DNA of 64,000 nt from Chrysomallon squamiferum (lineage: Eukaryota > Animalia > Mollusca): assembly GCA_012295275.1 (NCBI GenBank), contig CM022674.1, forward strand, positions 3,906,001 to 3,970,000. The letters are read 5' to 3'. The notes under the pieces are model-generated. The model made no database searches and was not told where the DNA came from. It was given only the letters and a program-made list of their open reading frames with translations. Of this stretch, positions 31,358 through 64,000 are shown piece by piece. Within the stretch, counting starts at the first letter, position 1; each line of letters begins with the position of its first letter. A program made the position numbers and the translations under genes.

Positions 31358-31400
<43 letters not shown>

Positions 31401-31726
31401 TACAAAGATTTTATTCAAGTGTTTTTGCCTCATTTCAAAAACAGTATTAGTATACTATATAATACTATGTATAGTTATGTCCTTACTCTGTGCAAGTGAT
31501 AATAGTTCATATGACATGTAATTAAATAAGTTACCCTAATATTGTTTTAGTGATTACTAACATATATCTCATACACTGTTTAAAATGCAATTATTTTATC
31601 GCAAAAAGTATAATCTCATTAATTAATTTATTATTGTTATCACATTTTCTTTCGTTCGTTCTGTCCCTGTCTTGCTATGAACAATGCTGTATAAATGTTA
31701 ATATTCCAGATCTAAAAAGAATCAGT

Positions 31727-42694: not shown

Positions 42695-42730
<36 letters not shown>

Positions 42731-43552: not shown

Positions 43553-43623
43553 GCATCGGTGGTCTAGTGGTAGAATACTCGCCTGCCACGCGGGTGACCC
43601 GGGTTCAATTCCCGGTCGATGCA
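43553..43623 (+). tRNA. tRNA-Gly(GCC)
   Basis: GCATCGGTGGTCTAGTGGTAGAATACTCGCCTGCCACGCGGGTGACCCGGGTTCAATTCCCGGTCGATGCA. Confidence 0.9.
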
Positions 43624-44103
43624 CATACGTTTCACTTTTCTTTCTCTTTTGCATGAACATACTAAGAAATATGCAGTTGATATGTTTCCACGGAGAAAGT
43701 AATAATTTGTGACAGTTAGAGGCGTAACAACAATTGGATGACGTCATTAACCAGTCGTGCATATTCAAGTTGAGTTTTTGCGTCCTCGAATTTCCCAGTA
43801 ACGGGCAAGTGCGCAGTGGATTGTGAAATATTTCTGTTCTATAAAACAACGCCCTATAATGGACATTAATATATGTCTTTAATTTGTTTACTAAAATGTC
43901 ACGTGACAGTACACTCAATAAATATATAAACATATATGGTCCTGTTCGTTTGTTAATCTAGCTTTTCAAAAAAACTGCAATCAGCCTACGTATTTTCGTT
44001 GTAAAAGTCTTAAATGTAATGTTATAATATTAAGCGTTTTAAATACCGAATGATAAAAAGGTTGTTCAGGAGGCAGTTTCTTTCATACACGTTTTTTGTT
44101 ACA

Positions 44104-44185
44104 GGTAGCGTGGCCGAGCGGTCTAAGGCGCTGGTTTTAGGCACCAGTCTCCTCGGAGGCGTGGGTTCGAATCCCACCGCTGCCA
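44104..44185 (+). tRNA. tRNA-Leu(TAG)
   Basis: Array copy, loop TTTAGGC. Confidence 0.9.
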
Positions 44186-44702
44186 AATAGCTCGCAAGTG
44201 AGCTGATTCGTTTTGCAACAGAGAGAACGAGAGGAAAATTTTTTCCTGAAGTGACGTTTTGAAAACCAATAGGAACCTGGGGTACTCGGTAAAGAAAAAC
44301 TCAATTTATACTTCATTTTTATTTTCTTATTTTATTTATTTTCTAATTTCGAAAACATAATGGACAGTGACATCGAAACCGAAATTATCGAAATTGAACG
44401 AGATAGCAATTAGCATGATTCGCTGAAGTCAGAAAAACATAAGAGTGACAAGTTTTCACCAGACAAATGCGTGCTCGTCTTTGAAACTGAAATGAAAACT
44501 GATTTAACAAAGAGCGAGTTAGATATCAAGTAACAAAAGCTTATCCTGACGAATCTTAAAGACAAATAGAAACTGCTTGAAAGGTAAAAAGGATTACACT
44601 TTCCGTAGTACATACACTGACATTTGTATAAATGGTGAAAGGAAAACGACTGCATTCCGCCATGTCAATGACACGTTAAAGGTGAGATACAATTTATGTG
44701 AA

Positions 44703-44773
44703 GCATCGGTGGTCTAGTGGTAGAATACTCGCCTGCCACGCGGGTGACCCGGGTTCAATTCCCGGTCGATGCA
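44703..44773 (+). tRNA. tRNA-Gly(GCC)
   Basis: Array copy. Confidence 0.9.
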
Positions 44774-45111
44774 CATACGTTTCACTTTTTTTTCTTTCTC
44801 TTTTGCATGAAATATGTAGGCTAAAATTGATTAATTACATTCAGATAAAATGTCTTTTAATCTATTACGAATATGCACTTCACTGATTGATAAGTTTTGA
44901 TCTGATATTGATCAATCTATTGTAAATGTCGACGATATCACATACGAAGTGATACCAGGTTTCTTCTTTCATATCATGATTATACGAAAACATTCGGTTT
45001 CGTTAACTCAACAATATTGACTTCCCAAATTTCGTTCCATCTTTAATATAACATGAATAAATACATTTTGTTCTGTTGATTCCAGTATGTTTACAACCTG
45101 CTATTGTTTAT

Positions 45112-45193
45112 GGTAGCGTGGCCGAGCGGTCTAAGGCGCTGGTTTAAGGCACCAGTCTCCTCGGAGGCGTGGGTTCGAATCCCACCGCTGCCA
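45112..45193 (+). tRNA. tRNA-Leu(AAG)
   Basis: Array copy, loop TTAAGGC. Confidence 0.9.
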
Positions 45194-45706
45194 AAGAGCT
45201 CGTGGGTGAGCTGATTAATTTTGCTTCGAAACGAAAGAATACGTCAGAACTGACATTTTTCAAAACGAATGGCAAGCTGGGGTACTCGGTTAAGAAAACA
45301 TCAATTTAGGCTATATTTTCATATTTTTTAATTTATTTTTTATTTTCTAATTTCGAAAATATAATGGACAATGACATCGAAACCGAAATTAGCGAAATTG
45401 AGCGACATAAAAATTAACATGAATCGCTGACGTTAGAAAAAGATAACAGTGACAAGTTATCAGAAGACAAACGCGTGCTCGTCTTTGAAGCTGAAATGAA
45501 AACTGATTTAACAAAGAGCGAGTTAGATATCAAGTAACAAAAGCTTATCCTGACGAATCTTAAAGACAAATAGAAACTGCTTGAAAGGTAAAAAGGATTA
45601 CACTTTCCGTAGTACATACACTGACATTTGTATAAATGGTGAAAGGAAAACGACTGCATTCCGCCATGTCAATGACACGTTAAAGGTGAGATACAATTTA
45701 TGTGAA

Positions 45707-45777
45707 GCATCGGTGGTCTAGTGGTAGAATACTCGCCTGCCACGCGGGTGACCCGGGTTCAATTCCCGGTCGATGCA
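45707..45777 (+). tRNA. tRNA-Gly(GCC)
   Basis: Array copy. Confidence 0.9.
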
Positions 45778-46093
45778 CATACGTTTCACTTTTCTTTCTC
45801 TTTTGCATGAAATATGTAGGATAAAATGTCTTTTAATCGATTACGAATATGCACTTCACTGTTCCAGATTGATAAGTTTTGATCTGATATTGATCAATCT
45901 ATTGTAAATGTCGACGATATCACATACGAAGTGATACCAGGTTTCTTCTTTCATATCATGATTATACGAAAACATTCGGTTTCGTTAACTCAACAATATT
46001 GACTTCTCAAATTTCGTTCCATCTTTAATATAACATGAATAAATACATTTCGCTCTATTGATTCCAGTATGTTTACAACCTGCTATTGTTTAT

Positions 46094-46175
46094 GGTAGCG
46101 TGGCCGAGCGGTCTAAGGCGCTGGTTTAAGGCACCAGTGTCCTCGGAGGCGTGTGTTCGAATCCCACCGCTGCCA
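46094..46175 (+). tRNA. tRNA-Leu(AAG) variant with variable-arm and T-stem substitutions (possibly defective)
   Basis: cagtGtcctcggaggcgtgTgttcgaat versus consensus cagtCtcctcggaggcgtgGgttcgaat. Confidence 0.7.
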
Positions 46176-46672
46176 AAGAGCTCGTGGGTGAGCTGATTAA
46201 TTTTGCTTCGAAACGAAAGAATACTTCAGAACTGACATTTTCAAAACGAATGGCAAGCTGGGGTACTCGGTTAAGAAAACATCAATTTAGGCTATATTTT
46301 CATATTTTTTAATTTATTTTTTATTTTCTAATTTCGAAAATATAATGGACAATGACATCGAAACCGAAATTAGCGAAATTGAACGAGATAAAAATTAACA
46401 TGAATCGCTGACGTCAGAAAAAGAGAACAGTGTCAAGTTATCAGAAGACAAACGCGTGCTCGTCTTTGAAGCTGAAATGAAAACTGATTTAACAAACAGA
46501 GAGTTAGATATCAGGTAAGAAAAGCTAAAACTGACGAATCTTAAAGACAAGTAGAAACTGCTTGAAAGGTAAAAAATGATTAAACTTTCCGTAGTACATA
46601 AATGGTGAAAGGAAAACGACTGAATTCCGCCGTGTCAATGACACGTTAAAGGTGAGATACAATTTACGTGAA

Positions 46673-46743
46673 GCATCGGTGGTCTAGTGGTAGAATACTC
46701 GCCTGCCACGCGGGTGACCCGGGTTCAATTCCCGGTCGATGCA
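46673..46743 (+). tRNA. tRNA-Gly(GCC), intact, overlapping the left copy of the 127-bp target duplication
   Basis: Array copy. Confidence 0.9.
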
Positions 46744-46822
46744 CATACGTTTCACTTTTCTTTCTCTTTTGCATGAATATACTAAGAAATATGCAGCTGA
46801 TATGTTTCCACGTAGAAAATAA

Positions 46823-48285
46823 AGCCAGTTTGCCCCCCAGGTGCAACAGTATCTGTAGCTAACACCGAATCTGAATATTCACATAATATTCATGGTAAAA
46901 CTATTAGCATACAAGATACTAGTGTTATATGTCAGTCTTTTTTTTTTTTTTTATTATTTTATTGCTTCTTGTTCTTAGTGTAAATATTACTATCAAGTTT
47001 ACCAGATCTCTAACTTGCAGCTTTCATAGACAGTTGTTTTCAGCTACTTATTGGATTTCTCCGGCAGTCAGTATAGCTCAAAAGCAAAATTACTGTGCTG
47101 TTGTTTCTCAAGTTTCAGCTTGGCTTGTGTTTTTACCTTGGTGTTAGAATTATTTTCAGACAGATTTGTGAAAAGGCATTATAATTCATGGACGTTTTTT
47201 TTTTTTTTTAAATATTTCATTGTTGAGTTAGTGATTGTGTTTCTTAACGTGCAAAGACAATAAGGAATATTGTACCCAGCTTTTAAAGGAAAAATCAGCA
47301 GTTTTTGATGAAAGTGTTAAAGAATGAATACAAGTGTTTTGTTGTGTACAAATACAAAATGTATAAAGGTGTTGTCTAATCAAGAGGAGAGCACCAGTTT
47401 TTCTACTTTCAAAATGAGTGTTTGTGGTGTTTTTACATCACTTTATCTTCAAGTATAAAGACTGGATTTTAAATGAGATCTTTGTCAGCTTTTCAAAAAC
47501 AACTGAAAAGGAAAATGAGAGGAAACTGGATGTGAACAAAGATTGAGATTATATCAAAGAAAGAGAAGAGGAGGAACTGAAACATTTACATAAACAAAAG
47601 TCTTCTTTCTTTTTCTTTTTTTTTTTTTGAATGTGTGTTTCAAAGCTTCTAGCATGAGAAATGCTTTGTGGACATTACTGCAGTGTGGTTTTCAAAGAAG
47701 ATAAATATTAATATACGAACATGGAAGGAGGTGAAATTGCTACAGCTGGAATAACAGGGATCCAGGAACAGATGCATTTACTAATAAATTATTTGTTACT
47801 TGCAAACTGTGATGATTTTACCACTGAAGAAGAAAATACTTGTGACAGATTTAAAATTAAAATAATATTAAAATGTACATATTGTGATAATAAAATGTTG
47901 AAATCTTTTATACATTTCCAAATGATTCAGTAATAATAAAGTACAATCATGATATCAGTAACTCTACTAAAGACCCATTTCATTCAAATCCACTTCATTA
48001 ATATAGAGTTATGTTTTATATTTCCCATTTTAAAATGTTCAAACTGGATTATTAATCTTGTGCAATTTTGAAATGTGACTCATTTAATTTGACCACCATT
48101 TTAACATGTTCACCATTATGTTTACACTTATTTTAATGTTTTTAATTTTATGTCCATGTCTTTTTATATTTTGTTTTATTACTCTGTGAAGCACCCTTGA
48201 ACTTACTTAGTATGGAAAAAGTGCTATATAAATATATAGAATAATAATAATAATAATAATAAAGAAATTCTCCTCAAATGATGTG

Positions 48286-48316
<31 letters not shown>
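46823..48316 (+). mobile_element. ~1.5-kb poly(A)-tailed retroposed insert whose 3' junction is in the tRNA-Gly D-arm; 127-bp target-site duplication
   Basis: AATAAA 48258-48263, A26 48291-48316; 46696-46822 repeated at 48317-48443; empty paralogous site at the 50580 unit. Confidence 0.85.
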
Positions 48317-48364
48317 TACTCGCCTGCCACGCGGGTGACCCGGGTTCAATTCCCGGTCGATGCA
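48317..48364 (+). pseudogene. 3' two-thirds of tRNA-Gly(GCC), part of the target-site duplication
   Basis: Begins at TACTCGCC directly after poly(A). Confidence 0.9.
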
Positions 48365-48801
48365 CATACGTTTCACTTTTCTTTCTCTTTTGCATGAATA
48401 TACTAAGAAATATGCAGCTGATATGTTTCCACGTAGAAAATAATTATTTGTGACAGTTAGAGGCTTAACAACAATTGGATGACGTCATTAACCAGTCGTG
48501 CATATTGAAGTTGAGTTTTTGCGTCCTCGAATTTCCCAGTAACGGGCACGTGCGCAGTGGACTTTAATATATGTCTTTAATTTGTTTACTAAAATGTCAC
48601 GTGACAATACACTCAATAAATATATAAACATATATGGTCCTGTTCGTTTGTTAATCTAGCGTTTCAAAAAAACTGCAGTCAGCCTACGTATTTTCGTTGT
48701 AAAAGTCTTAAATATAATGTTATAATATTAAGCGTTTTAAATAGCGAATGATAAAAAGGTTGTTCAGGAGGCAGTATCTTTCATACACGTTTTTTGTTAC
48801 A

Positions 48802-48883
48802 GGTAGCGTGGCCGAGCGGTCTAAGGCGCTGGTTTTAGGCACCAGTCTCCTCGGAGGCGTGGGTTCGAATCCCACCGCTGCCA
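48802..48883 (+). tRNA. tRNA-Leu(TAG)
   Basis: Array copy. Confidence 0.9.
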
Positions 48884-49593
48884 AATAGCTCGCAAGTGAG
48901 CTGATTCGTTTTGCAACAGAGAGAACGAGAGGAAAGAATTTTCCTGAAGTGACGTTTTGAAAACCAATAGGAAGCTTAGGTATTCGGTAAAGAAAAACTC
49001 AATTTATACTTCATTTTTATTTTCTAATTTTATTTATTTTCTAATTTCGAAAACATCATGGACAGTGACATCGAAACCGAAATTATCGAAATTGAACGAG
49101 ATAGAGCAATTAGCATGATTCGCTGAAGTCAGAAAAAAGATAAGAGTGACAAGTTTTCACCAGACAAATGCGTGCTCGTCTTTGAAGCTGAAATGAAAAC
49201 TGATTTAACAAAGAGCGAGTTAGATATCAAGTAACAAAAGCTTATCCTGACGAATCTTAAAGACAAATAGAAACTGCTTGAAAGGTAAAAAGGATTACAC
49301 TTTCCGTAGTACATACACTGACATTTGTATAAATGGTGAAAGGAAAACGACTGCATTCCGCCATGTCAATGACACGTTAAAGGTGAAAACTGATTTAACA
49401 AAGAGCGAGTTAGATATCAAGTAACAAAAGCTTATCCTGACGAATCTTAAAGACAAATAGAAACTGCTTGAAAGGTAAAAAGGATTACACTTTCCGTAGT
49501 ACATACACTGACATTTGTATAAATGGTGAAAGGAAAACGACTGCATTCCGCCATGTCAATGACACGTTAAAGGTGAGATACAATTTATGTGAA

Positions 49594-49664
49594 GCATCGG
49601 TGGTCTAGTGGTAGAATACTCGCCTGCCACGCGGGTGACCCGGGTTCAATTCCCGGTCGATGCA
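49594..49664 (+). tRNA. tRNA-Gly(GCC)
   Basis: Array copy. Confidence 0.9.
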
Positions 49665-50000
49665 CATACGTTTCACTTTTCTTTCTCTTTTTTGCATGAA
49701 ATATGTAGGCTAAAATTGATTAATTACATTCAGATAAAATGTCTTTTAATCTATTACGAATATGCACTTCACTGATTGATAAGTTTTGATCTGATATTGA
49801 TCAATCTATTGTAAATGTCGACGATATCACATACGAAGTGATACCAGGTTTCTTCTTTCATATCATGATTATACGAAAACATTCGGTTTCGTTAACTCAA
49901 CAATATTGACTTCCCAAATTTCGTTCCATCTTTAATATAACATGAATAAATACATTTTGCTCTATTGATTCCAGTATGTTTACAACCTGCTATTGTTTAT

Positions 50001-50082
50001 GGTAGCGTGGCCGAGCGGTCTAAGGCGCTGGTTTAAGGCACCAGTCTCCTCGGAGGCGTGGGTTCGAATCCCACCGCTGCCA
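50001..50082 (+). tRNA. tRNA-Leu(AAG)
   Basis: Array copy. Confidence 0.9.
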
Positions 50083-50579
50083 AAGAGCTCGTGGGTGAGC
50101 TGATTAATTTTGCTTCGAAACGAAAGAATACTTCAGAACTGACATTTTCAAAACGAATGGCAAGCTGGGGTACTCGGTTAAGAAAACATCAATTTAGGCT
50201 ATATTTTCATATTTTTTAATTTATTTTTTATTTTCTAATTTCGAAAATATAATGGACAATGACATCGAAACCGAAATTAGCGAAATTGAACGAGATAAAA
50301 ATTAACATGAATCGCTGACGTCAGAAAAAGAGAACAGTGTCAAGTTATCAGAAGACAAACGCGTGCTCGTCTTTGAAGCTGAAATGAAAACTGATTTAAC
50401 AAACAGAGAGTTAGATATCAGGTAAGAAAAGCTAAAACTGACGAATCTTAAAGACAAGTAGAAACTGCTTGAAAGGTAAAAAATGATTAAACTTTCCGTA
50501 GTACATAAATGGTGAAAGGAAAACGACTGAATTCCGCCGTGTCAATGACACGTTAAAGGTGAGATACAATTTATGTGAA

Positions 50580-50650
50580 GCATCGGTGGTCTAGTGGTAG
50601 AATACTCGCCTGCCACGCGGGTGACCCGGGTTCAATTCCCGGTCGATGCA
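50580..50650 (+). tRNA. tRNA-Gly(GCC)
   Basis: Array copy; empty-site paralog of the 46673 locus. Confidence 0.9.
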
Positions 50651-51087
50651 CATACGTTTCACTTTTCTTTCTCTTTTGCATGAATATACTAAGAAATATG
50701 CAGCTGATATGTTTCCACGTAGAAAATAATTATTTGTGACAGTTAGAGGCTTAACAACAATTGGATGACGTCATTAACCAGTCGTGCATATTGAAGTTGA
50801 GTTTTTGCGTCCTCGAATTTCCCAGTAACGGGCACGTGCGCAGTGGACTTTAATATATGTCTTTAATTTGTTTACTAAAATGTCACGTGACAATACACTC
50901 AATAAATATATAAACATATATGGTCCTGTTCGTTTGTTAATCTAGCGTTTCAAAAAAACTGCAGTCAGCCTACGTATTTTCGTTGTAAAAGTCTTAAATA
51001 TAATGTTATAATATTAAGCGTTTTAAATAGCGAATGATAAAAAGGTTGTTCAGGAGGCAGTATCTTTCATACACGTTTTTTGTTACA

Positions 51088-51169
51088 GGTAGCGTGGCCG
51101 AGCGGTCTAAGGCGCTGGTTTTAGGCACCAGTCTCCTCGGAGGCGTGGGTTCGAATCCCACCGCTGCCA
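51088..51169 (+). tRNA. tRNA-Leu(TAG)
   Basis: Array copy. Confidence 0.9.
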
Positions 51170-51876
51170 AATAGCTCGCAAGTGAGCTGATTCGTTTTGC
51201 AACAGAGAGAACGAGAGGAAAGAATTTTCCTGAAGTGACGTTTTGAAAACCAATAGGAAGCTTAGGTATTCGGTAAAGAAAAACTCAATTTATACTTCAT
51301 TTTTATTTTCTAATTTTATTTATTTTCTAATTTCGAAAACATCATGGACAGTGACATCGAAACCGAAATTATCGAAATTGAACGAGATAGCAATTAGCAT
51401 GATTCGCTGAAGTCAGAAAAAGATAAGAGTGACAAGTTTTCACCAGACAAATGCGTGCTCGTCTTTGAAGCTGAAATGAAAACTGATTTAACAAAGAGCG
51501 AGTTAGATATCAAGTAACAAAAGCTTATCCTGACGAATCTTAAAGACAAATAGAAACTGCTTGAAAGGTAAAAAGGATTACACTTTCCGTAGTACATACA
51601 CTGACATTTGTATAAATGGTGAAAGGAAAACGACTGCATTCCGCCATGTCAATGACACGTTAAAGGTGAAAACTGATTTAACAAAGAGCGAGTTAGATAT
51701 CAAGTAACAAAAGCTTATCCTGACGAATCTTAAAGACAAATAGAAACTGCTTGAAAGGTAAAAAGGATTACACTTTCCGTAGTACATACACTGACATTTG
51801 TATAAATGGTGAAAGGAAAACGACTGCATTCCGCCATGTCAATGACACGTTAAAGGTGAGATACAATTTATGTGAA

Positions 51877-51947
51877 GCATCGGTGGTCTAGTGGTAGAAT
51901 ACTCGCCTGCCACGCGGGTGACCCGGGTTCAATTCCCGGTCGATGCA
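51877..51947 (+). tRNA. tRNA-Gly(GCC)
   Basis: Array copy. Confidence 0.9.
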
Positions 51948-52281
51948 CATACGTTTCACTTTTCTTTCTCTTTTGCATGAAATATGTAGGCTAAAATTGA
52001 TTAATTACATTCAGATAAAATGTCTTTTAATCTATTACGAATATGCACTTCACTGATTGATAAGTTTTGATCTGATATTGATCAATCTATTGTAAATGTC
52101 GACGATATCACATACGAAGTGATACCAGGTTTCTTCTTTCATATCATGATTATACGAAAACATTCGGTTTCGTTAACTCAACAATATTGACTTCCCAAAT
52201 TTCGTTCCATCTTTAATATAACATGAATAAATACATTTTGCTCTATTGATTCCAGTATGTTTACAACCTGCTATTGTTTAT

Positions 52282-52363
52282 GGTAGCGTGGCCGAGCGGT
52301 CTAAGGCGCTGGTTTAAGGCACCAGTCTCCTCGGAGGCGTGGGTTCGAATCCCACCGCTGCCA
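52282..52363 (+). tRNA. tRNA-Leu(AAG)
   Basis: Array copy. Confidence 0.9.
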
Positions 52364-52860
52364 AAGAGCTCGTGGGTGAGCTGATTAATTTTGCTTCGAA
52401 ACGAAAGAATACGTCAGAACTGACATTTTTCAAAACGAATGGCAAGCTGGGGTACTCGGTTAAGAAAACATCAATTTAGGCTATATTTTCATATTTTTTA
52501 ATTTATTTTTTATTTTCTAATTTCGAAAATATAATGGACAATGACATCGAAACCGAAATTAGCGAAATTGAGCGACATAAAAATTAACATGAATCGCTGA
52601 CGTCAGAAAAAGATAACAGTGACAAGTTATCAGAAGACAAACGCGTGCTCGTCTTTGAAGCTGAAATGAAAACTGATTTAACAAAGAGCGAGTTAGATAT
52701 CAAGTAACAAAAGGTTAAACTGACGAATCTTAAAGACAAATAGAAACTGCTTGAAAGGTGAAAAGGATTAAACTTTCCGTAGTACATACATGGTGAAAGG
52801 AAAACGACTGCATTCCGCCATGTCAATGACACGTTAAAGGTGAGATACAATTTATGTGAA

Positions 52861-52931
52861 GCATCGGTGGTCTAGTGGTAGAATACTCGCCTGCCACGCG
52901 GGTGACCCGGGTTCAATTCCCGGTCGATGCA
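52861..52931 (+). tRNA. tRNA-Gly(GCC)
   Basis: Array copy. Confidence 0.9.
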
Positions 52932-53256
52932 CATACGTTTCACTTTTCTTTCTCTTTTGCATGAAATATGTAGGATAAAATTGATTTTAATCAGATTAAA
53001 ATATGCAATCTATTACTATGCACTTCACTGATTGATAAGTTTTGATCTGATATTGATCAATCTATTGTAAATGTCGACGATATCACATACGAAGTGATAC
53101 CAGGTTTCTTCTTTCATATCATGATTATACGAAAACATTCGGTTTCGTTAACTCAACAATATTGACTTCCCAAATTTCGTTCCATCTTTAATATAACATG
53201 AATAAATACATTTTGTTCTGTTGATTCCAGTATGTTTACAACCTGCTATTGTTTAT

Positions 53257-53338
53257 GGTAGCGTGGCCGAGCGGTCTAAGGCGCTGGTTTAAGGCACCAG
53301 TCTCCTCGGAGGCGTGGGTTCGAATCCCACCGCTGCCA
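53257..53338 (+). tRNA. tRNA-Leu(AAG)
   Basis: Array copy. Confidence 0.9.
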
Positions 53339-53834
53339 AAGAGCTCGTGGGTGAGCTGATTAATTTTGCTTCGAAACGAAAGAATACGTCAGAACTGACG
53401 TATTCAAAACGAATGGCAAGCTGGGGTACTCGGTTAAGAAAACATCAATTTAGGCTATATTTTCATTTTTTTTTAATGATTTTTTATTTTCTAATTTCGA
53501 AAATATAATGGACAATGACATCGAAACCGAAATTAGCGAAATTGAGCGACATAAAAATTAACATGAATCGCTGACGTCAGAAAAAGATAACAGTGACAAG
53601 TTATCAGAAGACAAACGCGTGCTCGTCTTTGAAGCTGAAATGAAAACTGATTTAACAAAGAGCGAGTTAGATATCAAGTAAGAAAAGGTAAAACTGACGA
53701 ATGTTAAAGACAAATAGAAACTGCTTGAAAGGTGAAAAGGATTAAACTTTCCGTAGTACATAAATGGTGAAAGGAAAACGACTGCATTCCGCTATGTCAA
53801 TGACACGTTAAAGGTGAGATACAATTTATGTGAA

Positions 53835-53905
53835 GCATCGGTGGTCTAGTGGTAGAATACTCGCCTGCCACGCGGGTGACCCGGGTTCAATTCCCGGTCG
53901 ATGCA
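53835..53905 (+). tRNA. tRNA-Gly(GCC)
   Basis: Array copy. Confidence 0.9.
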
Positions 53906-54239
53906 CATACGTTTCACTTTTCTTTCTCTTTTGCATGAAATATGTAGGCTAAAATTGATTAATTACATACAGATAAAATGTCTTGTAATCTATTACGAAT
54001 ATGCACTTCACTGATTGATAAGTTTTGATCTGATATTGATCAATCTATTGTAAATGTCGACGATATCAAATACGATGTGATACCAGGTTTCTTCTTTCAT
54101 ATCATGATTATACGAAAACATTCGGTTTCGTTAACTCAACAATATTGACTTCCCAAATTTCGTTCCATCTTTAATATAACATGAATAAATACATTTTGTT
54201 CTGTTGATTCCAGTATGTTTACAACCTGCTATTGTTTAT

Positions 54240-54321
54240 GGTAGCGTGGCCGAGCGGTCTAAGGCGCTGGTTTAAGGCACCAGTCTCCTCGGAGGCGTGG
54301 GTTCGAATCCCACCGCTGCCA
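54240..54321 (+). tRNA. tRNA-Leu(AAG)
   Basis: Array copy. Confidence 0.9.
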
Positions 54322-54833
54322 AAGAGCTCGTGGGTGAGCTGATTAATTTTGCTTCGAAACGAAAGAATACGTCAGAACTGACGTATTCAAAACGAATGGC
54401 AAGCTGGGGTACTCGGTTAAGAAAACATCAATTTAGGCTATATTTTCATTTTTTTTTAATGATTTTTTATTTTCTAATTTCGAAAATATAATGGACAATG
54501 ACATCGAAACCGAAATTAGCGAAATTGAGCGACATAAAAATTAACATGAATCGCTGACGTCAGAAAAAGATAACAGTGACAAGTTATCAGAAGACAAACG
54601 CGTGCTCGTCTTTGAAGCTGAAATGAAAACTGATTTAACAAAGAGCGAGTTAGATATCAAGTAAGAAAAGGTAAAACTGACGAATGTTAAAGACAAATAG
54701 AAACTGCTTGAAAGGTAAAAAGGATTAAACTTTCCGTAGTACATACACTGACATTTGTATAAATGGTGAAAGGAAAACGACTGCATTCCGCCATGTCAAT
54801 GACACGTTAAAGGTGAGATACAATTTATGTGAA

Positions 54834-54904
54834 GCATCGGTGGTCTAGTGGTAGAATACTCGCCTGCCACGCGGGTGACCCGGGTTCAATTCCCGGTCGA
54901 TGCA
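54834..54904 (+). tRNA. tRNA-Gly(GCC)
   Basis: Array copy. Confidence 0.9.
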
Positions 54905-55238
54905 CATACGTTTCACTTTTCTTTCTCTTTTGCATGAAATATGTAGGCTAAAATTGATTAATTACATACAGATAAAATGTCTTGTAATCTATTACGAATA
55001 TGCACTTCACTGATTGATAAGTTTTGATCTGATATTGATCAATCTATTGTAAATGTCGACGATATCAAATACGATGTGATACCAGGTTTCTTCTTTCATA
55101 TCATGATTATACGAAAACATTCGGTTTCGTTAACTCAACAATATTGACTTCCCAAATTTCGTTCCATCTTTAATATAACATGAATAAATACATTTTGTTC
55201 TGTTGATTCCAGTATGTTTACAACCTGCTATTGTTTAT

Positions 55239-55320
55239 GGTAGCGTGGCCGAGCGGTCTAAGGCGCTGGTTTAAGGCACCAGTCTCCTCGGAGGCGTGGG
55301 TTCGAATCCCACCGCTGCCA
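55239..55320 (+). tRNA. tRNA-Leu(AAG)
   Basis: Array copy. Confidence 0.9.
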
Positions 55321-55815
55321 AAGAGCTCGTGGGTGAGCTGATTAATTTTGCTTCGAAACGAAAGAATACGTCAGAACTGACGTATTCAAAACGAATGGCA
55401 AGCTGGGGTACTCGGTTAAGAAAACATCAATTTAGGCTATATTTTCATTTTTTTAATTAATTTTTTATTTTCTAATTTCGAAAATATAATGGACAATGAC
55501 ATCGAAACCGAAATTAGCGAAATTGAGCGACATAAAAATTAACATGAATCGCTGACGTCAGAAAAAGATAACAGTGACAAGTTATCAGAAGACAAACGCG
55601 TGCTCGTCTTTGAAGCTGAAATGAAAACTGATTTAACAAAGAGCGAGTTAGATATCAAGTAAGAAAAGGTAAAACTGACGAATGTTAAAGACAAATAGAA
55701 ACTGCTTGAAAGGTGAAAAGGATTAAACTTTCCGTAGTACATAAATGGTGAAAGGAAAACGACTGCATTCCGCTATGTCAATGACACGTTAAAGGTGAGA
55801 TACAATTTATGTGAA

Positions 55816-55886
55816 GCATCGGTGGTCTAGTGGTAGAATACTCGCCTGCCACGCGGGTGACCCGGGTTCAATTCCCGGTCGATGCA
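55816..55886 (+). tRNA. tRNA-Gly(GCC)
   Basis: Array copy. Confidence 0.9.
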
Positions 55887-56220
55887 CATACGTTTCACTT
55901 TTCTTTCTCTTTTGCATGAAATATGTAGGCTAAAATTGATTAATCACATTCAGATAAAATGTCTTGTAATCTATTACGAATATGCACTTCACTGATTGAT
56001 AAGTTTTGATCTGATATTGATCAATCTATTGTAAATGTCGACGATATCACATACGAAGTGATACCAGGTTTCTTCTTTCATATCATGATTATACGAAAAC
56101 ATTCGGTTTCGTTAACTCAACAATATTGACTTCCCAAATTTCGTTCCATCTTTAATATAACATGAATAAATACATTTTGTTCTGTTGATTCCAGTATGTT
56201 TACAACCTGCTATTGTTTAT

Positions 56221-56302
56221 GGTAGCGTGGCCGAGCGGTCTAAGGCGCTGGTTTAAGGCACCAGTCTCCTCGGAGGCGTGGGTTCGAATCCCACCGCTGC
56301 CA
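56221..56302 (+). tRNA. tRNA-Leu(AAG)
   Basis: Array copy. Confidence 0.9.
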
Positions 56303-56827
56303 AAGAGCTCGTGGGTGAGCTGATTAATTTTGCTTCGAAACGAAAGAATACGTCAGAACTGACGTATTCAAAACGAATGGCAAGCTGGGGTACTCGGTTA
56401 AGAAAACATCAATTTAGGCTATATTTTCATTTTTTTTTAATGATTTTTTATTTTCTAATTTCGAAAATATAATGGACAATGACATCGAAACCGAAATTAG
56501 CGAAATTGAGCGACATAAAAATTAACATGAATCGCTGACGTCAGAAAAAACAGTGACAAGTTATCAGAAGACAAACGCGTGCTCGTCTTTGAAAATGGTC
56601 GAAGCTGAAATGAAAACTGAAAACTGATTTAACAAAGAGCGAGTTAGATATCAAGTAAGAAAAGCTAAAACTGACGAATCTTAAAGACAAATAGAAACTG
56701 CTTGAAAGGTAAAAAGGATTACACTTTCCGTAGTACATACACTGACATTTGTATAAATGGTGAAAGGAAAACGACTGCATTCCGCCATGTCAATGACACG
56801 TTAAAGGTGAGATACAATTTATGTGAA

Positions 56828-56898
56828 GCATCGGTGGTCTAGTGGTAGAATACTCGCCTGCCACGCGGGTGACCCGGGTTCAATTCCCGGTCGATGCA
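56828..56898 (+). tRNA. tRNA-Gly(GCC)
   Basis: Array copy; empty-site paralog of the split 58960 locus. Confidence 0.9.
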
Positions 56899-57377
56899 CA
56901 TACGTTTCACTTTTGTTTTTCTTTTGCATGAATATACTAAGAAATATGCAGTTGATATGTTTTCACGGAGAAAGTAATAATTTGTGACAGTTAGAGGCTT
57001 AACAACAATTGGATGACGTCATTAACCAGTCGTGCATATTCAAGTTGAGTTTTTGCGTCCTCGAATTTCCCAGTAACGGGCACGTGCGCAGTGGATTTTG
57101 AAATACTTCTGTTCTATATAACAACGCCCTATAATGGACATTAATATATGTCTTTACTTGTTTACTAAAATGTCACGTGACAATACACTCAATAAATATA
57201 TAAACATATATGGTCCTGTTCGTTTGTTAATCTAGCGTTTCAAAAAAACTGCAGTCAGCCTACGTATTTTCGTTGTAAAAGTCTTAAATACAATGTTATA
57301 ATATTAAGCGTTTTAAATAGCGAATGATAAAAAGGTTGTTCAGGAGGCAGTATCTTTCATACACGTTTTTTGTTACA

Positions 57378-57459
57378 GGTAGCGTGGCCGAGCGGTCTAA
57401 GGCGCTGGTTTTAGGCACCAGTCTCCTCGGAGGCGTGGGTTCGAATCCCACCGCTGCCA
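57378..57459 (+). tRNA. tRNA-Leu(TAG)
   Basis: Array copy. Confidence 0.9.
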
Positions 57460-57976
57460 AATAGCTCGCAAGTGAGCTGATTCGTTTTGCAACAGAGAGA
57501 ACGAGAGGAAAGAATTTTCCTGAAGTGACGTTTTGAAAACCAATAGGAACCTGGGGTATATGGTAAAGAAAAACTCAATTTATACTTCATTCTTATTTTC
57601 TTATTTTATTTGTTTTCTAATTTCGAAAACATAATGGACAGTGACATCGAAACCGAAATTATCGAAATTGAACGAGATAGCAATTAGCATCATTCGCTGA
57701 AGTCAGAAAAAGATAAGAGTGACAAGTTTTCACCAGACAAATGCGTGCTCGTCTTTGAAGCTGAAATGAAAACTGATTTAACAAAGAGCGAGTTAGATAT
57801 CAAGTAAGAAAAGCTTATCCTGACGAATGTTAAAGACAAATAGAAACTGCTTGAAAGGTAAAAAGGATTAAACTTTCCATAGTACATACACTGACATTTG
57901 TATAAATGGTGAAAGGAAAACGACTGCATTCCGCCATGTCAATGACACGTTAAAGGTGAGATACAATTTATGTGAA

Positions 57977-58047
57977 GCATCGGTGGTCTAGTGGTAGAAT
58001 ACTCGCCTGCCACGCGGGTGACCCGGGTTCAATTCCCGGTCGATGCA
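57977..58047 (+). tRNA. tRNA-Gly(GCC)
   Basis: Array copy. Confidence 0.9.
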
Positions 58048-58365
58048 CATACGTTTCACTTTTCTTTCTCTTTTGCATGAAATATGTAGGCTAAAATTGA
58101 TTAATCACATTCAGATAAAATGTCTTGTAATCTTCACTGATTGATAAGTTTTGATCTGATATTGATCAATCTATTGTAAATGTCGACGATATCACATACG
58201 AAGTGATACCAGGTTTCTTCTTTCATATCATGATTATACGAAAACATTCGGTTTCGTTAACTCAACAATATTGACTTCCCAAATTTCGTTCCATCTTTAA
58301 TATAACATGAATAAATACATTTTGTTCTGTTGATTCCAGTATGTTTACAACCTGCTATTGTTTAT

Positions 58366-58447
58366 GGTAGCGTGGCCGAGCGGTCTAAGGCGCTGGTTTA
58401 AGGCACCAGTCTCCTCGGAGGCGTGGGTTCGAATCCCACCGCTGCCA
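58366..58447 (+). tRNA. tRNA-Leu(AAG)
   Basis: Array copy. Confidence 0.9.
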
Positions 58448-58959
58448 AAGAGCTCGTGGGTGAGCTGATTAATTTTGCTTCGAAACGAAAGAATACGTCA
58501 GAACTGACGTATTCAAAACGAATGGCAAGCTGGGGTACTCGGTTAAGAAAACATCAATTTAGGCTATATTTTCATTTTTTTTTAATGATTTTTTATTTTC
58601 TAATTTCGAAAATATAATGGACAATGACATCGAAACCGAAATTAGCGAAATTGAGCGACATAAAAATTAACATGAATCGCTGACGTCAGAAAAAGATAAC
58701 AGTGACAAGTTATCAGAAGACAAACGCGTGCTCGTCTTTGAAGCTGAAATGAAAACTGATTTAACAAAGAGCGAGTTAGATATCAAGTAAGAAAAGCTAA
58801 AACTGACGAATCTTAAAGACAAATAGAAACTGCTTGAAAGGTAAAAAGGATTACACTTTCCGTAGTACATACACTGACATTTGTATAAATGGTGAAAGGA
58901 AAACGACTGCATTCCGCCATGTCAATGACACGTTAAAGGTGAGATACAATTTATGTGAA

Positions 58960-59355
58960 GCATCGGTGGTCTAGTGGTAGAATGTATCAGTGCTTTAAAA
59001 TCATTCTAAATCAATATCGTATTCAAAACAAACTTTCAATTTTTATTAACAAATATGTTAAGAACAATATTTTCCTAGAACTAAAAGATGACATACTTAT
59101 TTTCAAATATCCTTTGGAAAGCTACAAATAATCAATAAAGATAAATCATGGAAATGGATAAAAGAATTAATACTATAAAATACTGTAAATATATATGGAT
59201 ATTCCGAATAAATAAGTATGCATGCATGTGAGTGTGAATGAGTGTGACTGAGTGTGTGAGAGGAAATAGTTTTTGTTATTGTTATTTACAGCTGTAATTT
59301 TATTTTAATTGTGTACAACTGGTGATTATACTAATAAAGATAAAAAAAAGCGTCA

Positions 59356-59386
<31 letters not shown>

Positions 59387-59437
59387 GAATACTCGCCTGC
59401 CACGCGGGTGACCCGGGTTCAATTCCCGGTCGATGCA
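58960..59437 (+). pseudogene. tRNA-Gly(GCC) split by a retro-insertion (58960-58983 and 59387-59437)
   Basis: 5' part ends GGTAGAAT; 3' part restarts GAATACTC after poly(A). Confidence 0.9.
58984..59386 (+). mobile_element. 5'-truncated non-LTR retrotransposon (Tx1/L1-like ORF2 C-terminus, 3'UTR, poly(A)) inserted in tRNA-Gly; TSD (A)GAAT
   Basis: Open frame 58985-59131 YQCFKIILNQYRIQNKLSIFINKYVKNNIFLELKDDILIFKYPLESYK*; AATAAA 59333-59338; A8; tRNA-Lys-like tag; A24; 4-5 bp TSD. Clade assignment is by recalled pattern only. Confidence 0.8.
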
Positions 59438-59916
59438 CATACGTTTCACTTTTGTTTTTCTTTTGCATGAATATACTAAGAAATATGCAGTTGATATGTT
59501 TTCACGGAGAAAGTAATAATTTGTGACAGTTAGAGGCTTAACAACAATTGGATGACGTCATTAACCAGTCGTGCATATTCAAGTTGAGTTTTTGCGTCCT
59601 CGAATTTCCCAGTAACGGGCACGTGCGCAGTGGATTTTGAAATACTTCTGTTCTATATAACAACGCCCTATAATGGACATTAATATATGTCTTTACTTGT
59701 TTACTAAAATGTCACGTGACAATACACTCAATAAATATATAAACATATATGGTCCTGTTCGTTTGTTAATCTAGCGTTTCAAAAAAACTGCAGTCAGCCT
59801 ACGTATTTTCGTTGTAAAAGTCTTAAATACAATGTTATAATATTAAGCGTTTTAAATAGCGAATGATAAAAAGGTTGTTCAGGAGGCAGTATCTTTCATA
59901 CACGTTTTTTGTTACA

Positions 59917-59998
59917 GGTAGCGTGGCCGAGCGGTCTAAGGCGCTGGTTTTAGGCACCAGTCTCCTCGGAGGCGTGGGTTCGAATCCCACCGCTGCCA
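59917..59998 (+). tRNA. tRNA-Leu(TAG)
   Basis: Array copy. Confidence 0.9.
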
Positions 59999-60513
59999 AA
60001 TAGCTCGCAAGTGAGCTGATTCGTTTTGCAACAGAGAGAACGAGAGGAAAGAATTTTCCTGAAGTGACGTTTTGAAAACCAATAGGAACCTGGGGTATTC
60101 GGTAAAGAAAAACTCAATTTATACTTCATTCTTATTTTCTTATTTTATTTGTTTTCTAATTTCGAAAACATAATGGACAGTGACATCGAAACCGAAATTA
60201 TCGAAATTGAACGAGATAGCAATTAGCATCATTCGCTGAAGTCAGAAAAATAAAAGTGACAAGTTTTCACCAGACAAATGCGTGCTCGTCTTTGAAGCTG
60301 AAATGAAAACTGATTTAACAAAGAGCGAGTTAGATATCAAGTAAGAAAAGCTTATCCTGACGAATGTTAAAGACAAATAGAAACTGCTTGAAAGGTAAAA
60401 AAGATTAAACTTTCCATAGTACATACACTGACATTTGTATAAATGGTGAAAGGAAAACGACTGCATTCCGCCATGTCAATGACACGTTAAAGGTGAGATA
60501 CAATTTATGTGAA

Positions 60514-60584
60514 GCATCGGTGGTCTAGTGGTAGAATACTCGCCTGCCACGCGGGTGACCCGGGTTCAATTCCCGGTCGATGCA
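60514..60584 (+). tRNA. tRNA-Gly(GCC)
   Basis: Array copy. Confidence 0.9.
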
Positions 60585-60902
60585 CATACGTTTCACTTTT
60601 CTTTCTCTTTTGCATGAAATATGTAGGCTAAAATTGATTAATCACATTCAGATAAAATGTCTTGTAATCTTCACTGATTGATAAGTTTTGATCTGATATT
60701 GATCAATCTATTGTAAATGTCGACGATATCACATACGAAGTGATACCAGGTTTCTTCTTTCATATCATGATTATACGAAAACATTCGGTTTCGTTAACTC
60801 AACAATATTGACTTCCCAAATTTCGTTCCATCTTTAATATAACATGAATAAATACATTTTGTTCTGTTGATTCCAGTATGTTTACAACCTGCTATTGTTT
60901 AT

Positions 60903-60984
60903 GGTAGCGTGGCCGAGCGGTCTAAGGCGCTGGTTTAAGGCACCAGTCTCCTCGGAGGCGTGGGTTCGAATCCCACCGCTGCCA
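60903..60984 (+). tRNA. tRNA-Leu(AAG)
   Basis: Array copy. Confidence 0.9.
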
Positions 60985-61495
60985 AAGAGCTCGTGGGTGA
61001 GCTGATTAATTTTGCTTCGAAACGAAAGAATACGTCAGAACTGACGTATTCAAAACGAATGGCAAGCTGGGGTACTCGGTTAAGAAAACATCAATTTAGG
61101 CTATATTTTCATTTTTTTTTAATGATTTTTTATTTTCTAATTTCGAAAATATAATGGACAATGACATCGAAACCGAAATTAGCGAAATTGAACGACATAA
61201 AATTAACATGAATCGCTGACGTCAGAAAAAGATAACAGTGACAAGTTATCAGAAGACAAACGCGTGCTCGTCTTTGAAGCTGAAATGAAAACTGATTTAA
61301 CAAAGAGCGAGTTAGATATCAAGTAAGAAAAGCTAAAACTGACGAATCTTAAAGACAAATAGAAACTGCTTGAAAGGTAAAAAGGATTACACTTTCCGTA
61401 GTACATACACTGACATTTGTATAAATGGTGAAAGGAAAACGACTGCATTCCGCCATGTCAATGACACGTTAAAGGTGAGATACAATTTATGTGAA

Positions 61496-61566
61496 GCATC
61501 GGTGGTCTAGTGGTAGAATACTCGCCTGCCACGCGGGTGACCCGGGTTCAATTCCCGGTCGATGCA
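61496..61566 (+). tRNA. tRNA-Gly(GCC)
   Basis: Array copy. Confidence 0.9.
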
Positions 61567-61884
61567 CATACGTTTCACTTTTCTTTCTCTTTTGCATGAA
61601 ATATGTAGGCTAAAATTGATTAATCACATTCAGATAAAATGTCTTGTAATCTTCACTGATTGATAAGTTTTGATCTGATATTGATCAATCTATTGTAAAT
61701 GTCGACGATATCACATACGAAGTGATACCAGGTTTCTTCTTTCATATCATGATTATACGAAAACATTCGGTTTCGTTAACTCAACAATATTGACTTCCCA
61801 AATTTCGTTCCATCTTTAATATAACATGAATAAATACATTTTGTTCTGTTGATTCCAGTATGTTTACAACCTGCTATTGTTTAT

Positions 61885-61966
61885 GGTAGCGTGGCCGAGC
61901 GGTCTAAGGCGCTGGTTTAAGGCACCAGTCTCCTCGGAGGCGTGGGTTCGAATCCCACCGCTGCCA
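61885..61966 (+). tRNA. tRNA-Leu(AAG), recombinant unit with TAG-type 3' flank
   Basis: AAG-type 5' flank and anticodon, but the 3' flank is atagctcgcaagtgagc. Confidence 0.9.
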
Positions 61967-62672
61967 AATAGCTCGCAAGTGAGCTGATTCGTTTTGCAAC
62001 AGAGAGAACGAGAGGAAAGAATTTTCCTGAAGTGACGTTTTGAAAACCAATAGGAACCTGGGGTATTCGGTAAAGAAAAACTCAATTTATACTTCATTTT
62101 TATTTTCTTATTTTATTTATTTTCTAATTTCGAAAACATCATGGACAGTGACATCGAAACCGAAATTATCGAAATTGAACGAGATAGCAATTAGCATCAT
62201 TCGCTGAAGTCAGAAAAAGATAAGAGTGACAAGTTTTCACCAGACAAATGCGTGCTCGTCTTTGAAGCTGAAATGAAAACTGATTTAACAAAGAGCGAGT
62301 TAGATATCAAGTAAGAAAAGCTTATCCTGACGAATCTTAAAGACAAATAGAAACTGCTTGAAAGGTAAAAAGGATTACACTTTCCGTAGTACATACACTG
62401 ACATTTGTATAAATGGTGAAAGGAAAACGACTGCATTCCGCCATGTCAATGACACGTTAAAGGTGAAAACTGATTTAACAAAGAGCGAGTTAGATATCAA
62501 GTAACAAAAGCTTATCCTGACGAATCTTAAAGACAAATAGAAACTGCTTGAAAGGTAAAAAGATTACACTTTCCATAGTACATACACTGACATTTGTATA
62601 AATGGTGAAAGGAAAACGACTGCATTCCGCCATGTCAATGACACGTTAAAGGTGAGATACAATTTATGTGAA

Positions 62673-62743
62673 GCATCGGTGGTCTAGTGGTAGAATACTC
62701 GCCTGCCACGCGGGTGACCCGGGTTCAATTCCCGGTCGATGCA
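62673..62743 (+). tRNA. tRNA-Gly(GCC)
   Basis: Array copy. Confidence 0.9.
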
Positions 62744-63076
62744 CATACGTTTCACTTTTTTTTCTTTTTGCATGAAATATGTAGGCTAAAATTGATTAAT
62801 TACATTCAGATAAAATGTCTTTTAATCTATTACGAATATGCACTTCACTGATTGATAAGTTTTGATCTGATATTGATCAATCTATTGTAAATGTCGACGA
62901 TATCACATACGAAGTGATACCAGGTTTCTTCTTTCATATCATGATTATACGAAAACATTCGGTTTCGTTAACTCAACAATATTGACTTCCCAAATTTCGT
63001 TCCATCTTTAATATAACATGAATAAATACATTTTGCTCTATTGATTCCAGTATGTTTACAACCTGCTATTGTTTAT

Positions 63077-63158
63077 GGTAGCGTGGCCGAGCGGTCTAAG
63101 GCGCTGGTTTAAGGCACCAGTCTCCTCGGAGGCGTGGGTTCGAATCCCACCGCTGCCA
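63077..63158 (+). tRNA. tRNA-Leu(AAG)
   Basis: Array copy. Confidence 0.9.
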
Positions 63159-63276
63159 AAGAGCTCGTGGGTGAGCTGATTAATTTTGCTTCGAAACGAA
63201 AGAATACGTCAGAACTGACATTTTTCAAAACGAATGGCAAGCTGGGGTACTCGGTTAAGAAAACATCAATTTAGGC

Positions 63277-64000
63277 CAGTGGTGGCCAAACTACGGCCCG
63301 CGGGCCGCATCCGGCCCCCAGTCCTGTTTCATCCGGCCCGCCAAACACCTTGCCTTGTTTTTTTCCAATCACCATATTTACCACTGTAAACAAGCAGTGC
63401 AACAGCGCTGGCTGCTACTAGCAGTATCTTGTGGCAAGCGTTGTTATTTTTAGAATAAATGCCCTTGCAGCGTTATTTTTAGAACAGTCTGCCAACCATG
63501 ACGTAAGTAGCTAACATAGCCTGTATGTGCTCTTTTTCACATCCCTTTGGCCTACTAGCCTACTTTGTAAGAAATCAGGAAGTTAATTGTTCCAGCTTTG
63601 ACTTTCAGTATTTTACTGAGCATGTAAGAGACAATACGCACATTGGATTTTCTTCTCAGAAGCAGCAATAATTTTATTTTTTTTTCTCTACCTTATCAGT
63701 TAAAATGTCTCCAACGAAAAAGAGAAAAGTAGATGATGAATGCCGAGTTTTTAAGGAGGAATGGACATACCAATATTTTTTCACTGCGGTAAATGGGAAA
63801 GCAGCGTGTTTAATTTGTAATGAGGGAATATCAGTTTTTAAAGAATATAATTTGAAAAGACACTATAATACAAAACACGCTGGATACAGTGAAGGACTAT
63901 CAACAGAGCAAAAGGTTAATAAAGCTGCTGATATGGTGAAAAATCTAATAAAGCAACAGTCGCTTTTTTCAAAGACACAATCCATTCACATTTCAGCAAC
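63277..64000 (+). mobile_element. hAT DNA transposon (Buster/Charlie/SPIN-like), left end, inserted in the array spacer
   Basis: Spacer breaks at atttaggc|CAGTGGTGGCCAAACTACGGCCCGCGGGCC (TIR plus CGGCCC subterminal repeats). The preceding 8-mer has the nnnTAnnn form. Confidence 0.9.
63705..64000 (+). CDS. hAT transposase N-terminus (GTF2IRD2/EPM2AIP1/SPIN-like zinc finger), runs off window
   Basis: MSPTKKRKVDDECRVFKEEWTYQYFFTAVNGKAACLICNEGISVFKEYNLKRHYNTKH..., no stop to window end. Confidence 0.9.
   Translation, partial: MSPTKKRKVDDECRVFKEEWTYQYFFTAVNGKAACLICNEGISVFKEYNLKRHYNTKHAGYSEGLSTEQKVNKAADMVKNLIKQQSLFSKTQSIHISA

Follow-up and report, generated by a model that had tools for sequence, protein, structure and literature searches.

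We conclude with fair confidence that the insert interrupting a tRNA-Gly(GCC) gene of the mollusc Chrysomallon squamiferum is a 5′-truncated L1/Tx1-type LINE with relatives at nucleotides 21/22 of tRNA-Gly, -Asp, -Thr and -Lys genes, and that the site is likely chosen by its APE endonuclease, which would recognise the conserved GGT(N)AG closing the D-loop and cut at that point. The L1/Tx1-type lineage to which it belongs likely aims at a position common to many tRNA genes. The window (the whole stretch analysed, 64,000 nucleotides) is animal DNA with intron-containing genes, including a hyaluronidase-family exon and MFS transporter exons.

The interrupted tRNA-Gly gene and its tandem array

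The gene lies in a tandem array (43553-63159, + strand) in which tRNA-Gly(GCC) alternates with tRNA-Leu(AAG or TAG), with 17 Gly units and 17 Leu genes. Over the whole window ARAGORN called 20 Leu genes, 17 of them inside the array, and 16 intact Gly genes. The 16 intact Gly copies are all identical, and the window holds 17 Gly 5′ halves and 18 Gly 3′ halves. Gly-to-Leu spacers are of two types, 12 AAG-type and 5 TAG-type.

As the first-pass annotation had described, the tRNA-Gly(GCC) gene at 58960-59438 is split by 403 bp (58984-59386). All parts of this locus are on the + strand. The 5′ part of the gene (58960-58983) is followed by the C-terminus of an L1/Tx1-type ORF2 (58982-59131), 49 codons and a stop, of which 48 codons fall wholly within the insert. 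A 3′ UTR of 210 bp with a GT-rich tract (59132-59341) ends in the 9-mer AATAAAGAT (59333-59341), with AATAAA at 59333, and the 3′ part of the gene resumes at 59387-59438. The ORF tail, 3′ UTR, AATAAA and poly(A) listed in the first-pass annotation are thus all present. The insert is flanked on both sides by GAAT, or AGAAT counting the last A, in agreement with the 4-5 bp target-site duplication claimed before; the duplication is certain only as 2-5 bp, because the element shares the final two letters of the tRNA side. Its left copy is the last 2-5 nt of the 5′ part, and its right copy opens the 3′ part. In standard tRNA numbering (our own assignment) the 3′ flank begins at G22, with A21 ambiguous, which places the insertion between tRNA-Gly nucleotides 21 and 22, just 3′ of the A box at the boundary of D-loop and D-stem.

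Contigs of the same species in all four sequencing runs (4/4) extend the element upstream of 58982-58985, with many sequence variants. Insert 1 is therefore a 5′-truncated member of a multicopy family, and the truncation proposed earlier is borne out. A variant end at 59111-59115 was considered as a second terminus and set aside, as a subfamily difference is the simpler reading. Summed contig depth was higher over the insert than over the spacer, a depth sum being no copy number. No contig in the four runs covered 59350-59368, a gap that is uninformative on the age of the copy.

The first-pass annotation had missed that the 3′ end of the insert consists of two A-tails with a tRNA-like 15-mer between them. 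The first tail (A8, 59342-59349) is likely that of a donor copy. It is followed by 15 nt (59350-59364) matching tRNA-Lys(TTT) just 3′ of GGYAGA, and then by a second poly(A) (A24, 59363-59386) that begins 24 nt after the end of AATAAA; the last two A of the 15-mer may belong to this tail. The 15-mer matches at 15/15 positions a viral tRNA-Lys (L011), directly after GGYAGA, and at 14/15 an animal tRNA-Lys at a locus described below (L023). Within the window it had no second match. A scan of viral contigs returned 21 loci, 1 being that tRNA-Lys and 20 being non-tRNA chance matches; the viral matches show what the 15-mer fits, not the Lys gene of C. squamiferum itself. The probability of such a fit to tRNA-Lys by chance is about 1.5e-4, as a rough figure. 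To judge from its sequence, the 15-mer is likely flanking DNA carried along by 3′ transduction, its donor copy having sat in a tRNA-Lys gene whose cut lay 1-2 nt 3′ of the insert 1 site. Transduction from such a donor would mean that one family uses two isotypes.

A second poly(A)-tailed insert of about 1.49 kb (46823-48316, ending at 48314 or 48316, + strand) interrupts the array in the same orientation. It carries an A26 tail and no similarity to ORF2, and it matched neither a profile of 68 ORF2 sequences nor the element DNA of the related loci L022 and L024. A stretch at 48185-48262, ending in (AAT)n, may resemble the 3′ tail of L2-type LINEs. The tail of insert 2 joins the Gly 3′ part after G22, A23 or A24, which is 1-4 nt 3′ of the insert 1 site and compatible with the putative Lys donor site. 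At the other end, the 5′ junction falls within the spacer that follows an intact Gly gene (46673-46744), which is restored by the left copy (46696-46822, +) of a perfect 127-bp duplication that up to 2 further A may lengthen to 129 bp. The right copy (48317-48443, +) matches the uninterrupted unit at 50603 without a difference over 788 bp. The earlier claim of an independent insert at the same site therefore stands as to its unrelated sequence, poly(A) and orientation; the junction is offset and the duplication long. Target-primed reverse transcription (TPRT) with a distant second cut is plausible for insert 2, because long duplications also flank another L1-group copy (L034) and, in shorter form, one junction of the planarian element LIN15_SM. 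A passenger RNA is slightly favoured as its source; the 3′ end of a second family is less likely, and some other origin is improbable.

Both inserts are in units with the minority TAG-type spacer (5/17), as noticed in the first-pass annotation, and the bias that it saw there is not significant (P = 0.074).

The array itself has other features. All 12 AAG-type Gly-to-Leu spacers (e.g. 44895-44984 and 58149-58238) contain a stretch of 24-30 codons weakly like residues ~980-1011 of the LINE-group ORF2 (tblastn E 0.006-0.2; profile E 0.014-0.08, the best unrelated match having 1.2), which may be a fossil insertion homogenised through the array. Three Leu-to-Gly spacers (48883-49594, 51169-51877 and 61967-62673) share an internal duplication of ~190 bp. 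The unit at 61885, where a Leu(AAG) gene is followed by a spacer of TAG type, points to exchange between units. The left edge of the array (41820-43300) consists of decayed units, with a Leu remnant near 41854 and Gly remnants near 42330 and 43295, and at its other end (63160-64000) a hAT-like DNA transposon begins, with Spin-doc and BED zinc-finger matches.

Affiliation of the element

A HMMER search with the ORF tail against 1.84 billion representatives gave 4 matches, of which three align with the tail end to end at 54-62% identity. The fourth, P0005, is a Hydra collagen with vWA repeats and was dropped as a chance match. A direct homolog search of the 49-residue tail against longer proteins found none among 42 candidates. 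The link to complete proteins runs through P0002, which is 62% identical to the tail over 48 residues (E 1.7e-10) and has a weak zf-RVT match below the curated cut-off. From P0002, 5 longer proteins were reached among 440 candidates, including P0008 (1281 aa), a full-length ORF2 with Exo_endo_phos (APE), RVT_1 and zf-RVT domains. P0014 and P0067 likewise have the APE catalytic motifs, the RT core and the CCHC finger; in these three full-length relatives zf-RVT scored 25.9-28.1 against a cut-off of 27.5. The window copy thus retains the last 49 residues of an ORF2, linked to its relatives at 57-62% identity.

The best relative of P0008 among solved structures is human L1 ORF2p (299 bits), and the closest named non-mollusc protein is the zebrafish pol-like BAC82613 (808 bits), presumably from the 2004 Tx1 series. 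Structures of R2 type match over the RT only. The N-terminus of ORF2 in the relatives is an APE domain, in place of the restriction-like endonuclease (RLE) of the NeSL-related tRNA elements. The order of domains in the full-length relatives (N-terminal APE, central RT and C-terminal CCHC finger) is that of L1-group ORF2 proteins. A separate upstream ORF1 is present in L022, where it is 566 aa long, has two CCHC knuckles, gave no Pfam match and ends just before ORF2. The window copy bears the marks of TPRT, namely a poly(A) 3′ end, 5′ truncation and a target-site duplication. Because its relatives combine APE, RT and CCHC finger and resemble human L1 ORF2p and BAC82613, the element is by protein similarity a member of the L1 group. 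It probably belongs to the Tx1 clade, the comparison being with a single fish reference of uncertain family name. The check for APE plus RT proposed with the first-pass annotation therefore found both, and the Tx1-like C-terminus named there is the tail of an L1-group APE and RT ORF2, its Tx1 placement being probable.

We further examined the placement of these proteins in an RT phylogeny. FastTree was run on 123 RT regions (128 proteins were given and 5, too short, were dropped), with midpoint rooting and no outgroup. The Asp- and Thr-inserting groups described below fall within one clade of 79 of the 123 sequences (support 0.997), which is sister to the clade containing BAC82613 (joint support 0.847). 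Inside the larger clade the node joining the Asp and Thr groups is weak (0.527), and the target is known for only 2 groups of the 79 sequences. The RT active site reads HADD in 78/79 members and in 0/44 sequences outside, BAC82613 reading YADD. This HADD clade includes Mytilus proteins and sequences from many animal assemblies. On several equal-length ENA contigs, members of different clusters occur together, as would be expected if the elements were grouped in arrays. No relative of the element was returned by protein scans of viral contigs, 400 further genomes of the class of G001 (the assembly with locus L024, below) gave no match, and an Atlas search gave only RT clusters without names.

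Junctions in other tRNA genes and the choice of site

In a target-blind test, genome_contigs were scanned with the protein P0008, and one locus (L024) was confirmed of 15 candidate stretches. The ORF2 of this locus shares 97% identity with P0008, and at the DNA level the locus is 73% identical to the window ORF tail over 138 bp. The A13 tail of this copy is joined at G22 to the 3′ part of a tRNA-Asp(GTC) gene, at the edge of an Asp tandem array with 35 intact genes (16 in L024 and 19 in L035). Its 5′ end is within the 5′ part of the same Asp gene, with a target loss of 7-11 nt and no clear duplication. With GGTGAG as the Asp target, GGTAGA cannot be a requirement, and the strict GGTAGA target of the first-pass annotation must be replaced by a position, A21/G22, just 3′ of the A box.

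L024 and the more distant L034 come from contigs C35 and C55 of G001, a bacterial MAG in which these contigs, with a tRNA-Asp array and LINEs, are animal DNA and hence host contamination. At 5587-6280 of L024, ~630 bp upstream of the first Asp gene, there is also a decayed internal fragment of a related ORF2 (39-45% identity) without ends. L034 is an L1-group copy at 38% identity, outside the HADD clade and not in a tRNA; its RT motif, read from DNA, is YSDD, and its flanking duplication is 153 bp.

In an element-blind test, at least 8 A joined to a generic tRNA 3′ part were sought. This pattern constrains the junction position only loosely, because 0-2 free letters were allowed. It was found at two loci (L022 and L023) among 241 million records of the JGI metagenome collection and at 0 loci in viral contigs. 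Both loci terminate in the same 9-mer as insert 1, and both 3′ flanks begin at G22. L022 has a full ORF1 and is joined to tRNA-Thr(AGT); its ORF2 of 1299 aa shares 38% identity with P0008 and 76-80% with a protein of Mytilus edulis. The contig of L022 begins inside the element, the 5′ junction lying outside it. L023 is joined to tRNA-Lys(TTT) near intact Lys and Met genes, and its family is assigned from the terminal 9-mer, since 13 nt of element are visible. In total, four junctions in four assemblies (Gly, Asp, Thr and Lys) fall at tRNA position 21/22, one of them found target-blind. By the sequence of these junctions the target is not Gly-specific, genes for Gly, Asp, Thr and Lys all being used. 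That the cut lies within the tRNA coding sequence, as first proposed, is supported by related full-length elements that end at the same tRNA-internal position.

All targets share GGT followed by A and G, with an optional base between the T and the A. Sequence 3′ of GGT(N)AG varies, which suggests that recognition is mainly on the A-box side. The insertion would proceed as follows. An ORF2 with APE, RT and CCHC finger, as seen in the relatives, would supply an endonuclease whose nick in the non-coding strand falls at about A21/G22 or, in some cases, 1-2 nt to the 3′ side of it; the position comes from the junctions, and the specificity of the enzyme is deduced from it. The 3′-OH would then prime reverse transcription on the poly(A) tail, a mode of priming established for the L1 group, and the tail, the truncation and the 2-nt microhomology fit such TPRT. 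At insert 1 the second strand was evidently cut 2-5 nt downstream. The double tail could be explained by a donor in tRNA-Lys(TTT) whose transcript ran ~15 nt into the tRNA and was polyadenylated 24 nt after AATAAA. Insert 2 would be a passenger RNA or the 3′ end of another family, brought in by a similar machinery whose second-strand cut lay far off. A tandem array of tRNA genes would cushion the host against losing single copies.

The chance of two independent sense-strand insertions within a 4-nt window of the Gly D-arm in this 19.6-kb array is ~3e-6 under a uniform model and ~4e-4 if insertions are restricted to generic L1-type nick sites; both figures are post hoc and assume independence.

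A host factor might set the position instead, with ORF1/ORF2 tethered to the gene through Pol III factors (TFIIIC bound to the A and B boxes) and an endonuclease of loose specificity nicking whatever accessible site is nearest on the 3′ side of the A box. Tethering would fit the differences between the Gly, Asp, Lys and Thr targets, both 3′ of the cut and in the 5′ hexamer (GGTAGA vs GGTGAG), the 1-4 nt by which junctions in the window vary, and the presence of an unrelated RNA (insert 2) at nearly the same site. Protein-guided targeting near tRNA genes is moreover known from TRE5-A of Dictyostelium, like the present element a non-LTR element directed to tRNA genes. TRE5-A, however, contacts a host protein and inserts outside the gene at a distance, and protein-guided elements generally do so rather than entering the target, as far as the accessible text of PMC3706591 describes them, whereas here four junctions share the one nucleotide step A21/G22. 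Target choice in the Tx1 clade is, in the available part of PMC4494074, attributed mainly to the endonuclease. A further point against tethering is that no Leu gene is hit: 0/20 carry an insert against 2/17 Gly units, a difference that is not significant (P ~0.2, by hand arithmetic), so that the avoidance of Leu put forward in the first-pass annotation holds as a count and not as a statistical result. We regard a host factor as an unlikely determinant of the position.

Less probable still is that the element is an ordinary, weakly selective member of the L1 group, landing genome-wide at short pyrimidine-rich nick sites, and that the tRNA cases reflect selection by the search. The bottom strand at the Gly site does read TTCT/A, which we take to be an L1-like nick motif, the element-blind scan required a tRNA, and the host contains many variants of the family. 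Moreover, the readable host flanks are not tRNA. In the four host runs, two distinct 3′ flanks could be read past the A-tail, and by eye neither (0/2) is tRNA-like; both belong to divergent copies, one seen in 4/4 runs and the other in 1 run, and the remaining records stop in poly(A). Against this, L024 was chosen by protein only and yet is joined to a tRNA at this very nucleotide, with no L1-like sequence on the bottom strand there; the junction scan did not require the element, yet 2/2 loci carry its terminal 9-mer; the array offers 899 generic L1-type sites against 17 Gly sites; and the transduced Lys 15-mer would be left to chance. An artefact of assembly or recombination that joined unrelated pieces at a tRNA can be set aside as very improbable: the near-identical array is prone to collapse and the 127-bp duplication at insert 2 could stem from unequal exchange, but a target-site duplication, a poly(A) tail, an ORF2 tail and microhomology can all be recognised, the junction recurs in independently made assemblies of other animals, and the related copy L034 has a long flanking duplication as well.

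Targeting by the element's own endonuclease, which we continue to prefer, is a strong preference and not absolute. Off-target copies exist, because the readable flanks of divergent copies are not tRNA, and tRNA junctions would be under-sampled, because short-read contigs break at long tails inside repeats. In the window, a decayed fragment of a related ORF2 tail (31219-31323, + strand; 82% over 105 bp) lies between two isolated tRNA-Leu genes, outside any tRNA and without a 3′ end; the first-pass annotation's restriction of such inserts to Gly genes does not extend to this fragment. Close behind it, still between tRNA-Leu(AAG) genes, a T36 run with a reverse-strand AATAAA nearby (31362-31420) is the tail of an opposite-strand retroposon. 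In the literature, a preference for a target sequence has been called where more than 20% of flanks fall in a repeated sequence, according to the accessible text of PMC4494074.

Comparison with known tRNA-directed elements

Among known systems, the target-specific Tx1 LINEs Dewa, Mutsu and Keno share with the present element an ORF2 with APE and RT, an upstream ORF1, a poly(A) end and a fixed site in multicopy small-RNA loci (as described in the accessible parts of PMC3706591, PMC4494074 and PMC5340908). Mutsu cuts ~20 nt into 5S genes and the target of Keno is U2 (same parts of PMC3706591, PMC4494074 and PMC5340908); the Tx1-clade targets given in what is available of PMC4494074 and PMC5340908 comprise U2, U5, 5S, satellites, microsatellites and transposons. 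Dewa uses the spacer of tRNA-Leu arrays (PMC3706591, in part); membership of Dewa by target was rejected, the 3′ junctions here being inside Gly, Asp, Thr and Lys coding sequence. The tRNA-inserting elements also form their own HADD clade, apart from BAC82613. L1-Tx1 families are numerous, Repbase holding 14 for the Pacific oyster alone according to the accessible text of PMC10294476.

In the literature covered, described targets of APE-type LINEs are 5S, U2, microsatellites, transposons and tRNA spacers, and elements inside tRNA genes are RLE-type LINEs and Dada. No APE-type element inside tRNA coding sequence was found in the accessible full texts (including PMC3747384, PMC5035012, PMC10294476, PMC2684134 and PMC4889948), a coverage outside most subscription journals, Repbase Reports, Dfam and the target list in Fig. 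3 of PMC4494074. Targeting inside tRNA genes as such is already described, for RLE-type elements (PMC4640811) and for Dada (PMC3706591), as their accessible parts make plain. Dada transposons also enter tRNA genes; the A box (nucleotides 8-13) is the site of many, and some families use several isotypes, tRNA-Gly(GCC) among them. Unlike the element described here, they are DNA transposons of the DDE type that lack RT and poly(A), make 6-7-bp duplications and use a different site (PMC3706591 and PMC8869645, in the parts available).

If the endonuclease does choose the site, an APE enzyme selecting one position common to many isotypes would be a test case for site choice by short motifs. Cleavage and target-swap assays could draw on relatives whose ORFs are intact, the target of one of these (L022) being known. 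Such targeting would also name a source of the tRNA pseudogenes and half-genes in invertebrate tRNA arrays, and it would show independent convergence on the D-arm.

The closest parallels are found among RLE-encoding elements. LIN25_SM and NeSL-1_TV are non-LTR elements that target the inside of tRNA genes, as here; they belong to the RLE group, and their sites are the acceptor stem of tRNA-Glu and the T-loop of tRNA-Pro, respectively (PMC4640811, in its accessible part). LIN15_SM of the planarian Schmidtea mediterranea, a NeSL-related element with a restriction-like endonuclease (Kojima and Jurka 2015, PMC4640811, accessible part), comes nearest: it too is a non-LTR element that sits within the coding sequence of tRNAs, in the sense direction and at the D-arm, with its 3′ flank starting at about nucleotide 24, and it uses several tRNA-Arg isoacceptors and has one 5′ junction with a longer duplication. 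It differs in encoding an RLE, whereas the relatives here encode APE and RT with a separate ORF1; moreover, its targets listed in that part of PMC4640811 are tRNA-Arg only, and the site here is mostly 2 nt further 5′, in Gly, Asp, Thr and Lys genes.

It is conceivable, though we hold it with slightly less than even confidence, that the whole HADD clade (79 ORF2 clusters) is an old, widespread and undescribed APE-type LINE lineage cutting nucleotide 21/22 of many tRNA isotypes, whose families switch isotype (Lys to Gly here), carry passenger RNAs to the site, leave remnants in tRNA-array spacers and have converged on the site of the planarian RLE element. Set apart from the known families by their literature descriptions, the tRNA-internal, multi-isotype target of the L1/Tx1-type elements described here is convergent with that of the RLE element of planarians.
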